Positions 11,674 through 57,105 of a stretch of DNA of 64,000 bases are shown piece after piece (within the stretch, counting starts at the first letter, position 1; the number at the start of each line of letters is the position of its first letter). The stretch spans positions 85,064,001 to 85,128,000 of the forward strand of contig OZ024745.1 in assembly GCA_964016885.1 (NCBI GenBank), in the 5' to 3' direction. This stretch comes from Eledone cirrhosa (taxonomy: Eukaryota). The translations under genes and the position numbers were made by a program. The notes under the pieces are model-generated. The model made no database searches, was not told the origin of the DNA, and saw only the letters and a list, made by a program, of their open reading frames with translations.

Positions 11674-11872
11674 CTATATATAGGTATATATATATGTTTA
11701 TATATATATATACATATATATATATATATATATATATATAGATGATATTCTACAAGACGAGAACTGTTTATATTTATACATATATATGTATATATATATA
11801 TATTTACATATATATATATATATATATATATATATATATATATATATATATATATATATAGGAACCAGTAAG

Positions 11873-11966
11873 ACCCCGACAGCTGAGCTCAAGCCGTTTC
11901 GACGGCTAATTCTGGACTAAATGAAAATTTATCCTGGTATTTAAATAGCCGATCTTCTCAAGGGGT
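11873..11966 (-). ncRNA. Type I hammerhead with U3-A8 core, family C (left arm)
   Basis: Reverse complement of 15309-15402. Confidence 0.75.
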
Positions 11967-13063
11967 AATTCCATATATGGTCAAAGTGATTGTCAAAAAT
12001 CAGTAGTAATTCTGTGGTTGCAAATTAGTAGAGGAGATGGTGGCTAAACCTGCCAGTAGGAGAAAGAGGGGAGGGGGTGGAGTAGACCCAATCAAGCGTT
12101 GGTAGTGCCAGCTACAGCTGGGCATGAGGTCAAAGAAGATACAGGGGAGGGGGAGGGGGAGGAAGTCGGAACGGTAGGTAGAACAATGGGGGGTAGAAAT
12201 AGGAAAGAAAAAATACTGAGAGTGAAGAAAAGCAAATAAGTGTAAAGAAAAAAGTAAAGTAAATTAAATTCTACGACCTAGGTGTCAGGCTATTGTTAGG
12301 CGAGAATAAAATAAATAAAGAAAGAAAGAAGTAAATAAATAAATAAATAAATAAATAGAGAAATAAGTAAGAGAACTAGGTGGGACGGATAAGGCAAGGA
12401 CCCTTTTAAGAGGTATAAGTACGTAAATGATACGGTGACGGGTCAACAAAAGGGGCCAAAATACTAAAGAGACTACCACGAAATAGACAATAAAGGTTTC
12501 CATCCCGGGCCAGCAACGACCCAGTGCAGCAAAGTGAACTTGTACGAGATAATAATTCTGAGTCCCGAGAAAAATATATACTAATGCTAACTCTAAAAGA
12601 TCTAAAACAAGCTACATGAAAGTTCGTACGAAATAAAGGTAGAATACGGAGAAATGAATTCAGAATCCACCCCGCCCAGAAGAAAAGCGAAGCAAGAAAT
12701 ACTGAAACGAAAAAATAAGGCATAAGTGCCACTAAGAAATATAGAGGGCACAGAGAATAGTGGGAGCGGTCGGAAAAAGGGGGAAAGTATCCGGGGTCTA
12801 AGCCAACTGCTATAAAGGGCGGAGTCCGCCAAATCTATCAAAGACTAGGGGAGGGAGGGTACTAAGGCTACATGGGGCCAAAGGGCAGCCTCGGGTGGGC
12901 GAGAAAAGACGCCGACAAAGGAGAAGAGCTGGGGTAGAAGGACAAAGGAGAGAGGGGGGAAGGAAATAAAGGAAGCGATAAAAGAATACAAAGAAGATCT
13001 TACGTCTTCCTTGGCAAGCAGGGAGTTACCCATTGCAAAATCGGCAACTGGGGTGTTATAGCC

Positions 13064-53448: not shown

Positions 53449-54053
53449 TATCCCAGTACAACCTGTCTCATGGTCGGGTCGTTGGCGACTAAACTGGCAA
53501 CCCCACCAAGGTTTCTTGGTGAGGAGGGTGACTTTGGACATCCTGCAGGACTAAAAACAAAACCTGTCAAAGGGCAAAGGAGCTCTTAAGAGTCAATGGC
53601 CATCCAAAATCACCGGGAGAGATGACCCCTTTAGCCTTAGTCAAGGCAGAATTCTAGGAGAAGGAAAACTCTGATATAACACCTGCAACCCTGATGGTAT
53701 CCAATGATGTTGACTTGTTCTTCTTTTTGGTAAATAGCATCTTGGTTAAGAGAGTGGGACTGGCTTTGTGCAGTGCCTTTGCTCACTATAAAAGCTTCAC
53801 GGCACAGGCATTGCTTTATATCTGGAGATCTCTCTGCACTTGTCCTCACATGGGCCCAGCACTATGTGTCAATGGTTGTCCTACCATGGGCCTAGCACTA
53901 TGTGTCAATGATTGTCACAGGTGTAGTGTTTGTACCAGAGGTTTCAAGTCGCTGGCTGGACTAAAAAGTCACACTCGTTCAGCGCTTCGGTAGGGGTTAT
54001 CCTACATGGATGTAAAGTAGTGGCCGTACTCGAAAACGAGTTGGCAGCCACCA
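53449..54053 (+). mobile_element. Probable non-autonomous bipartite RTE derivative (5' UTR + zinc-finger-like C-terminus + 3' end)
   Basis: GTCGTTGGCGACTAAA and CTAGGAGAAGGAAAACTCTG resemble RTE 5' UTR motifs (recalled). [19 protein letters not shown] resembles the RTE C-terminal finger. TA-flanked. Confidence 0.5.
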
Positions 54054-54387
54054 TATATGTACATATATATATGTAGATATATATGTATATATGTATATAT
54101 ATGTATATATGTATATATATATGTGTATATGTATATATATATGTATATATATATGTATATATATATGTATATACATATGTATATATATATATGTGTGTAT
54201 ATATATATGTATATATATATATGTATATATATATATATATATGTATATATATATATATGTATATATATATATATATATGTATATATATATGTATATATAT
54301 ATATATGTATATATATATATATGTATATATATATATATATATGTATATATATATATGTATATATATATATATGTATATATATATATG

Positions 54388-57105
54388 TAATGTATAATTA
54401 ACAATACAATATAATTACCTCATTACCAGAGGTGTCACTTTAGCCGCATATACAATGGCTTTGGTGTTGCATTTACCTTGTAAAGGGCATTCACTTTTGA
54501 CTCTACAGGAGCAATTTTGATGTTCTCTAGATGATTTTTTGTTGATGATATAATATTTAATAGGGGGACCGCAGGAGTAGCTAATTTTGACACAGCTTCT
54601 ATTAAAGATCTTATAGTATCTATGTGTTCTAGGGAAATGTTTATCTAAGAGCACTAGGAATTTTTTGCCTACATTTGTTTTAACTGCTAGAGAGTAGGGG
54701 GTGTGAACCAGATTATTTTTCTTTTCCTATTTTTATGTTTAAAAGAGTTAGTATAGTTGGGTATGTATTTAATCAGTTCGCTAAATCCGCTAATATTAGC
54801 CGTAGGATCTCCCCCCTCTCTTCCTCAGACGCTATTTTCAATAAGGCATCCCCTACTATTATAAAGCCCTCCAAAATAGCGGATTTAGCGAACCGATTAA
54901 ATACATACCCAACTATACTAACTCTTTTAAACATAAAAATAGGAAAAGAAAAATAATCTGGTTCACACCCCCTAATCTCTAGAAGTTAAAACTAATGTAG
55001 GCAAAAAATTCCTAGTGCTCTTAGATAAACATTTCCCTAAAACACATAGATACTATAAGATCTTTAATAGAAACTGTGTCAAAATTAGCTACTCCTGCGT
55101 CCCCCTATTAAATATTATATCATCAACAAAAAATCACCCAGAGAACATCAAAATTGCTCCTGTAGAGTCAAAAGTGAATGCCCATTACAAGGTAAATGCA
55201 ACACCAAAGCCATTGTATATGCGGCTAAAGTGACAACCATCAGCAACAACCAACCAGCCACCAGTGAACGATATGTGGGTATGACACAAGACAAATTCAA
55301 ATCGCGTTATTACTCACATGTCGCATTCTTTCGACATCCAGAAAAAAGATTCACAACAGCTCTGGCTAGCAGAATATAGGATTTGAAAGTCCAAGGTATC
55401 CAATATAAATTGGATTGGTCAATTTTGAACCAATCTAAATAATATGCAAGAGGAACAAGAAAATGAACACTCTGCATAAATGAAAAATATTGGATTTTAC
55501 AAAACCTTAAATCACCAAAAACCTGCCTAAATACAAAGACAGAAACTTTCACCAGTTGCCCACACATGAAATCCTACTTGCTTTCCAGCTCATATAAACT
55601 TAACTCACTTTCAGATACTTATCCGCCATAAGCTCTTATTCTTCACTTAAATTATTCTCTTTAAAGACTACTCTTTCTGATTTACTTTCATTTTTAACCT
55701 TATTAATTTTATTTTTATTTTTATTTTTACTTCACATCCACCAGTAACTCCCCCCTTTATTCTTCGATTCACTTACCTAATATCTTCACTTTCCACATTT
55801 ATCTTCCCTTTTTTCTTTACTACCTGATTACACAGGTCACTTGCGTTTTCCACTCAAGATATTTACTGTTATTTCGCAGCCAATTTTATATTTTTATATT
55901 TGTACTCATTTATTCATAAGGCTGCTTTACACCCTGTATCTATGTGTCTGAGCGTCTTTATGTGTGTATACGTTCCGTATATGTACACGAACGCCTCCGT
56001 ATGCGCGCGTGCGAGCGTGTATATATATGTGTATGTATGTATGTTTTTATATCTGTGTTTTTACATCTATGTTTTTTACATTCTTATTTTTATGTGTGTG
56101 CGTGTAAGCAGGTCAATGTACGTGAATCTGTTCGTGTGCATGTATGTATATATGTATTGTATGTATGGGTGTGTATGTGTGCGTGTATATATATATATAT
56201 ATATATATATATATATATATACAGTCGCGTACGTACGTATGATTAGATATACATGGGGCGATATGTATGAATATGTATACGTGCATCCTGTGTATGTATG
56301 TACGCATGCATACGCTTTTGTCCGTACGTATTGCGTGTATATATATTTTTTTTATAGATATATGTTTTTTATAGATATATATGTATGTACGCGTGTATCT
56401 TTTCTTTTCTTTTCTTTTCTCTAGTGTTAATTGACTACATTCTCTTTCATTTAAACATTTTTTCTTTCTCACATATTGTTTAATTTTTATACATATATCG
56501 AGAATGACACTTTCTTTTAACTATTACACTCCCTTCCCCATTTATCTTCCTCATATAAGTGATCACGCGTGTGTGTGTTTATACGCGTGCTTTCATACTC
56601 ATATGTGTATCTAATATCTGCTTCTGGATTCGTGTCAACTAGATTATATCCGTATTTGTGGTTACATATACACAAATATACTTGCCCTCATATATGTACT
56701 TACGTACACATTTTCACAATACACATGCATTTGTACATACATACATATGTACATTTGTGAGTGTATATACATACATATACACACACCTAACTATATTTCC
56801 TCATATTTTTTTATATATTTTATATGTCTATTGCATTACATTTCTTTATATATATATATATGTATATATATTTTTTTTCTTTTGCTTTTCTTGAAGAGAC
56901 TTTCCAAATATTTCACTATGTTTTATATTGTCTTGTTCGACGAACGAATGAGGACGTATCTTTCGTATTCGTCTTATTCGGGAAACCTCTCGTAATGAGG
57001 TAATTATATTGTATTGTTTATTATACATTAAATTTTGCTCTGGTACTTACATAGATCACTTTTCACTGCTATGACTTTTTCAATTTTCAACGGAAACTTC
57101 AATAT
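54388..57105 (+). mobile_element. Naiad-type PLE family D, degraded; RT thumb + GIY-YIG (~54793-55630) with an inverted, internally deleted left arm
   Basis: LLDKHFP...KIFNR..VKISYSC, CSCRVKSECPL, YVGMTQDKFKSRY; 54434-54792 is the reverse complement of ~54877-55235. Confidence 0.85.
56934..57010 (+). ncRNA. Degenerate hammerhead-like motif, family D
   Basis: TCGACGA-ACGAATGAGGACG...CGTCTTATTCGG-GAAA-CCTC tcgtaat GAGG-TA; core has two mismatches and helix I is poor. Confidence 0.45.

Follow-up and report, generated by a model that had tools for sequence, protein, structure and literature searches.

Head-to-head pairs of Penelope-like insertions with a tail on one arm in (TA)n tracts of the Eledone cirrhosa genome

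The 64,000-nt stretch of the Eledone cirrhosa assembly GCA_964016885.1 considered here (contig OZ024745.1, positions 85,064,001 to 85,128,000; hereafter, the window) is a block of retroelements and (TA)n tracts that looks gene-free, in a 3.0-Gb animal assembly, with alternating simple repeat masking approximately 30% of its length. Within the region 11859..57105, a first-pass annotation had described seven insertions of Penelope-like elements (PLEs) with inverted arms. Self-comparison of the window, the dot-plot check proposed there, shows all seven, and global alignment recovers them at roughly the claimed sizes, with arms that are 97-100% alike and differ by 0-20 mismatches (Table 1); an eighth, tiny pair, of family E, had been overlooked. 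The seven pairs share one build, in which a main 5'-truncated copy is joined by its 5' end to that of a second 5'-truncated copy in reverse orientation, so that the 3' ends of every pair face outward into (TA)n. With small stubs left out of the count, 8 of the 11 PLE copies in the window are inverted, the full-size exceptions being A1, B1, and A2. The idea that A1 and A2 are halves of one interrupted pair was rejected: the two face each other tail to tail, are 94% alike, and are both tail-less. Coding sequence, which the annotation had placed in the arms, is present in three of the seven pairs (A3, B2, and D) and absent from the other four. As argued below, these are probably real PLE insertions, each consisting of two head-to-head 5'-truncated copies, one tailed and one not, which likely arise when both ends of a cut (TA)n tract prime reverse transcription at two fixed start sites.

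Table 1. PLE insertions of the window (window coordinates), with arm comparisons from global alignment; hammerheads are predictions. ORF, open reading frame; RT, reverse transcriptase; UTR, untranslated region; pLTR, pseudo-long terminal repeat.
Element	Coordinates	Strand	Arms (difference)	Layout
C, Hydra-clade PLE	11859..15495	-	11862-12847 / 14429-15413 (3 mismatches)	main copy 11862-14431, 5'-truncated and tail-less; inverted copy 14429-15495, tailed (~80 bp); copies overlapping by TAG at the junction; each arm with a hammerhead layout
B2, Hydra-clade	18253..22158	-	18363-20177 / 20349-22154 (20 mismatches)	main copy 18253-20347, tailed (~110 bp); inverted copy 20349-22154, tail-less; each arm including ~140 bp from the ORF end; left hammerhead with 2-nt deletion
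G	22456..23118	.	22456-22760 / 22767-23071 (0 mismatches; 305 bp)	two 3' ends of a 4.15-kb RT/GIY-YIG PLE family, same truncation point; 6-bp loop; right arm with ~45-bp tail; hammerhead core and stem II only
E, Hydra-clade 3' UTR	23176..24906	-	23176-23512 / 24462-24812 (4 mismatches and a 14-bp gap)	main copy 23176-24465, tail-less; inverted copy 24462-24906, tailed (~90 bp); copies overlapping by TCTT at the junction; hammerheads ~23270 (-), ~24718 (+)
E2, minimal inverted E insertion	25495..25648	.		57-bp tail-less end and ~100-bp tailed end
A3, Hydra-clade	34995..45366	-	34995-39612 / 40609-45226 (16 mismatches, mostly one simple-repeat cluster)	main copy 34995-40611 without tail; inverted copy ~40612-45366, ~135-bp tail; each 4.6-kb arm with a long-stem-II hammerhead, ~2 kb of simple repeat, and ~520 bp of the endonuclease ORF
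Neptune-like PLE	47318..50735	-	47318-47524 / 50529-50735 (6 mismatches)	main copy 47318-50528 (RT, GIY-YIG); 207-bp end 50529-50735 in reverse orientation; each arm with a minimal hammerhead; left-end tail state ambiguous
D, Hydra-clade	54400..57105	+	54433-54792 / 54877-55235 (9 mismatches); terminus 54400-54436 / 56982-57018 (37 bp)	main copy 54790-57101, ~83-bp tail; inverted copy of 360 bp coding (54433-54792) and, fused to it, a terminus of 37 bp without tail (54400-54436); lacks a complete hammerhead
B1, comparison copy	7279..11683	-		direct (partial tandem) pLTR; not inverted
A1	2122..6354	+		single 5'-truncated copy, tail-less, not inverted
A2	30021..34619	-		single 5'-truncated copy, tail-less, not inverted

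Judged by their protein motifs, all window pairs belong to endonuclease-bearing (EN+) PLE families, five of the Hydra clade, one Neptune-like, and one (G) unplaced. Full-length relatives from the same genome show that families A, B, C, D, and E carry RW[KR], DKT, a CxCx5C linker, and CxxC and CxH near the C terminus, with no CCHH motif; family E has NKT instead of DKT, and no RW motif was seen in its open frames that were examined. These five were assigned by aligned motifs, A and C having no relevant Pfam match. Both the motif set and the (TA)n targets, into which all five insert, are those of the Hydra clade as characterized in section 11 of PMC8557442. Unlike the elements described in that section, the units here are 3.5-6.9 kb long rather than under 3 kb, owing to long 3' UTRs; stem II regions are long in the hammerheads predicted for A and C, the core of the latter is U3:A8, and D has no complete hammerhead. 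In the Neptune-like element, Pfam RVT_1 (E 1.2e-05) and GIY-YIG (E 0.0034) match below the gathering threshold, GIY-YIG being above it in a relative (L135); the element has a CX4CxxC linker (CNDSRCGTC) and a CCHH-type motif (IYCIKCPNC..YVG), with later His residues seen in L135. We label 47318-50735 Neptune provisionally, by a motif that does not distinguish this clade from Nematis. The G unit shows RVT_1 (E 1.1e-04) and a YIGET motif. A pattern search found its 31-base hammerhead core (22825-22855) at 8,475 exact genomic sites, although subfamily flanks differ and no stem I was found nearby; DNA similarity search had recovered none of them, window G included. We rejected the identification of G as a miniature inverted-repeat or foldback DNA transposon, given that it is the 3' end of a 4147-bp RT/GIY-YIG unit and that its arm lengths vary freely in 37 insertions. 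Tandem units measure 3531 bp (C), 4147 bp (G), and about 6907 bp (A), and a partial tandem pLTR occurs also in B1. At L120-L121 and L223-L224, tandem arrays of full-length units flank the head-to-head junction on one or both sides, which implies multimeric templates. In the Neptune-like L143 and L149-L152, many short copies, as well as the two arms of ~380-bp palindromes, end at nearly the same position (to within ~5 nt), which lies ~45 nt upstream of the hammerhead; their junctions differ slightly, and the pattern suggests that a short RNA with a fixed 5' end served as template.

Outside the window, 2-10 kb were fetched at 149 insertions, namely, all 12 distinct C loci, the 20 top-scoring loci each of E, A, Neptune, B, and D (four small contigs, and second hits from an array or pair already represented, being passed over), and the first 37 G insertions along contig C1; the maps were read by hand. 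Inversion was found at 89 of the 149 (C 10/12, E 15/20, A 14/20, Neptune 12/20, B 9/20, D 9/20, G 20/37), that is, at 45-83% by family. Thus, inversion is the commonest arrangement, not a universal one: the first-pass annotation, which had called it the rule, was right about its prevalence and overstated its generality. Four further sampled insertions (L135, L159, L172, and L245) are also inverted, judging from a tiny arm or from the hit table. The percentages carry the biases of the sample, in which top hits are the closest relatives of the window copies, the E and A queries held the tail, pairs could be hit twice in C, Neptune, B, and G, and L114 and L115 are possibly one duplicated locus. 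Around the first 100 G core sites, neighbours within 8.3 kb are divergent in 14 cases, convergent in 1, and direct in 5; with 14 divergent against 1 convergent, the arrangement is therefore not due to chance.

Two 3' termini, separated by about 40-135 bp, occur in each family, and of the 82 pairs whose ends could both be resolved, 80 combine a tailed arm with a tail-less one (7 of the 89 pairs, with an unresolved end, were left out; the tally was made by hand from the maps). The pattern holds in 53 of 54 pairs from the five families that were not anchored on the tail (p 6e-15 versus 50:50) and in 7 of the 8 window pairs, Neptune being ambiguous. Among 79 pairs scored, the tail is carried by the longer copy in 39 and by the shorter in 28, the lengths being within 50 nt in 12. 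In pairs with the tail on the short arm and the spacer on the long one, neither arm can have templated the other, and two first strands are therefore needed. The termini fall on 2-5 nt of TA, TAT, or ATAT common to element and target, wherever read-through copies showed the family sequence, as pairing with a (TA)n end would give.

The tails bear directly on whether the pairs exist at all. Foldback chimeras produced by assembly or amplification would fit the perfect identity of the G arms and the more than 99% identity of the A3 and C arms, and no listed contig piece bridges the C junction of the window. Such chimeras, however, would copy their own strand and flank, whereas the arms hold a family tail or spacer that the partner lacks; substitutions separate the arms in 6 of the 7 window pairs, and pairs elsewhere differ by 0-14%. 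Since the tail is on one arm, and on either the longer or the shorter copy, foldback chimeras and plain snap-back copying are excluded, and we attach almost no weight to an artefactual origin. In a comparison of four runs with C, independent raw Illumina reads from a later study show both termini of this family, with 2907 reads exiting into TA repeats at 15417 (tail-less) and 1085 at 15484 (tailed). They also contain several opposite-strand joints, most of them from one start place, as restriction-site libraries give. This evidence supports the family pattern rather than the window locus, the window's own junction being bridged by none of the listed pieces.

A second line of evidence comes from variants that the two arms of a pair share. 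In 80 pairs (74 outside the window and 6 in it, 48.7 kb), we counted 181 variants private to both arms, at 1.5-6.1 per kb, compared with 0.08-0.96 per kb in cross-locus pairs, a 6-30-fold difference. The two arms of A3 agree in the length of their ~2-kb repeat tract (2029 bp), which in 12 other copies differs and ranges over 1740-2121 bp. These data speak to a scenario in which two unrelated insertions landed side by side, or two unrelated RNAs were drawn from the family pool. PLEs do crowd into (TA)n in the window, 613 variants are private to one arm compared with the 181 common to both, some pairs differ by 5-14% (L084, L147, and L258), and one has unlike repeat tracts (L112). Nevertheless, besides the excess of shared private variants, the divergent orientation of G neighbours, the strict tail pairing, and the abutment of the arms with no (TA)n between them make unrelated events quite unlikely. 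The first-pass annotation predicted that transcripts reading through both arms would yield long double-stranded RNA, a potential substrate of ADAR or small-RNA pathways. A fixed adenosine-to-inosine signature was absent from the variants, sense-strand A>G and T>C numbering 22 versus 25 (shared), 45 versus 72 (one arm), and 60 versus 90 (unpaired), and no single arm was dominated by A>G.

The junctions themselves were scored in 77 pairs (70 of the 89 outside and 7 in the window; the remainder lie in simple repeat or were not entered). Of the 32 that are clean, 19 have an overlap of at least 2 nt and 13 of at least 3 nt (chance 18% and 6.5%). Filler at L156, L224, and L247 consists of clearly templated repeats of adjacent sequence. 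The fillers of L156, L159, L224, and L247, built of repeated nearby sequence, resemble the templated insertions left by polymerase-theta end joining, or RT slippage.

Shared private variants and junction microhomology are accounted for equally well by self-priming, whereby one strand, either cDNA or antisense RNA, folds back and copies itself, and a widely staggered cut by the endonuclease then resolves the hairpin, so that just one end keeps the tail; this is the reading of PMC3846280, complemented by the suggestion on the tail made in PMC8557442. Near-symmetric junctions, as expected from self-priming, exist in window G and in the 13 of 78 pairs whose arms stop within 25 nt of each other, and in Neptune the tail is never on the clearly shorter arm (longer in 5, shorter in 0, equal in 6). 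A fixed cut polarity, however, predicts the tail always on the same arm, so that the 28 pairs with the tail on the shorter copy, beside 39 on the longer, require an extra assumption. Furthermore, most junctions are asymmetric, with spacers of up to kilobases, and the tail boundaries are reverse-transcription start sites in vitro (PMC11167929). On balance, we consider self-priming improbable, albeit less so than unrelated events.

The first-pass annotation had proposed that break ends in self-complementary (TA)n prime reverse transcription, by twin priming or template switch. Priming from the two ends is indeed the best fit, with termini on TA or TAT. In L1 twin priming, two primers act at one target break and yield a head-to-head junction with microhomology, and the inverted part is an upstream, non-overlapping segment of the RNA. 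The insertions described here resemble this process in the junction and, on the reading favoured here, in the two primers from one break; unlike L1, both arms duplicate the 3' end, with starts 40-135 nt apart, and L1-type twin priming was rejected on these grounds. Nor are (TA)n tracts required, given the inverted pLTR insertions with 8-10-bp target-site duplications outside (TA)n in PMC3846280. Under the two-end model that we favour, the element's protein would cut a (TA)n tract on both strands, and a separate reverse transcript would be primed by each of the resulting DNA ends at one of the two fixed start sites. Both cDNAs would be copied from RNA of one donor, either a single molecule or sister transcripts, and would stop independently; their free 3' ends would then be joined head to head via 2-4 nt of complementarity or filler, which would also provide for second-strand priming. 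Parts of this scheme have a precedent in the Poseidon element PAc of Anolis in vitro (Frangieh et al. 2024, PMC11167929), whose purified protein, a predicted dimer, cuts and extends both strands of AT-rich targets and starts at two sites bounding the tail, although the sections of that paper considered here reconstitute neither joining nor inversion.

Several observations weigh against the two-end model. The ~480-bp repeat tract of family A is closer between partner arms than in the closest cross-locus comparison in just 5 of 9 pairs, and the partner arm is strictly the nearest copy in only 20 of 80, which is expected in young families with short overlaps, yet weakens the case; later gene conversion between arms could also produce shared variants. 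Apparent inserts occupy 45 of the 77 junctions, real filler being mixed there with mismatch to the reference copy. Arms stop within 25 nt of each other only in the 13 of 78 pairs mentioned above (6.3 in shuffles), or in 6 of 65 with Neptune excluded (2.6 in shuffles). Two pairs break the tail rule, one of G with two tails (L248) and one of E that ends 16 nt into the tail (L082). The start sites of PAc are not homologous to the cut DNA, unlike the 2-5 nt of TA/TAT shared with the target here. Finally, 40% of the sampled insertions have no second arm, and a tiny or rearranged one was found in just 3 of the 59 singles examined (L245, L172, and L159).

The last figures matter for a bolder version of the two-end model, in which two-ended priming is the normal PLE route: one dimer would copy one RNA twice from two fixed UA(U) sites paired to the cut (TA)n ends, the cDNAs would anneal by their 3' ends and prime each other's second strand, and singles would be cases in which the second arm aborted within a few bases. 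Candidate remnants of such aborted arms are 13 nt in L245 and 10 nt in L172. With a hidden arm in 3 of 59 singles only, it is therefore not shown that every insertion is two-armed, and this version is offered as a tentative possibility.

Outward-pointing hammerheads had been ascribed to both arms of all seven pairs. Our hammerhead calls are predictions from a custom test of the type I layout (core, stems I-III, and NUH site). An Rfam scan at gathering thresholds gave no hammerhead matches, and an Rfam E-value scan gave repeat-driven microRNA matches only, among the 150 of 468 matches listed. As a prediction, the claim holds for four or five pairs: a complete type I layout is predicted in both arms of C, E, A3, and Neptune (4/7) and in the right arm of B2, where the damage to the left arm lies in stem III. 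G is partial, and in D the left arm holds the 3' half only. On the inward strand, no hammerhead layout was found in the 14 regions tested (C not among them), and single-strand fold z-scores of the hammerhead regions are mostly weak and mostly no better than those of shuffles. The hammerheads point outward because they are located near the 3' end of each copy, and no separate function of the inverted form is needed to account for their orientation. The predicted type I hammerhead of family A (45034-45163 and 35058-35187), missed by Rfam, combines a 10-bp stem I with a 115-nt stem II region and is conserved in 16 matches at 10 loci; that of family C (~15313-15395 and its left-arm mirror) replaces C3:G8 with U3:A8, includes a stem II region of 54 nt and a GUC site, and is conserved across the C loci.

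Other repeats are present in the window as well. A SINE-like insert (~50280-50480, with a ~17-bp target duplication) lies in the 5' part of the Neptune-like copy, and isolated 31-40-bp terminal stubs occur within (TA)n, namely, a tailed end of family A (18113-18153) and a tail-less end of family E (52549-52585). LINE-type elements with apurinic/apyrimidinic endonuclease and RT frames occupy 25688-28776 and 59104-61979, and the family of the former also terminates in (TA)n at 16465-16787 and 51235-51488. The repeat at 45628-45873 matches L125 and L126 in both orientations and is therefore probably another foldback family. A single 284-bp repeat end at 62822-63105, with a hammerhead-like core near 62956 (+), is 97-98% alike to copies at three fetched loci.

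The layout itself is known and ordinary for PLEs. The Fig. 2 legend of PMC8557442 (Craig et al. 2021), together with PMC3846280 (Arkhipova et al. 2013), describes complex EN+ insertions with an inverted 5'-truncated copy adjoining the 5' end, partial tandems, a one-sided tail, pLTR hammerheads, and microsatellite targets, the inverted copy and one-sided tail being typical according to the former and head-to-head the most frequent arrangement according to the latter. Thus, the frequency, size, and coding content of the arms, which had been considered unusual, are not so, because each arm is a second 5'-truncated copy of the published kind. What differs from the insertions in these sources is that the tails are about 40-135 bp rather than 30-40 bp long, that the arms reach 4.6 kb owing to the long 3' UTRs, and that the tail, called optional in the passages considered, is paired nearly strictly here (80/82). 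Our search, to which subscription papers and supplements were out of scope, found no paper that quantifies tail pairing or proposes two-ended priming for PLE inversions, and the part of preprint 10.64898/2026.07.22.740005 that we consulted adds nothing on inversions.

How PLEs finish integration and why inverted structures form are questions that PMC8557442 and PMC11167929 describe as open, and the regularity quantified in these new family members makes this open mechanism testable. The strict tail pairing, the tail on either arm, and the shared donor variants tie the two start sites seen in vitro to the inverted layout, and the tail counts argue against the published self-priming reading. Should the inverted share of ~60% extend to the many thousands of copies in the genome, these would amount to a large potential source of double-stranded RNA.

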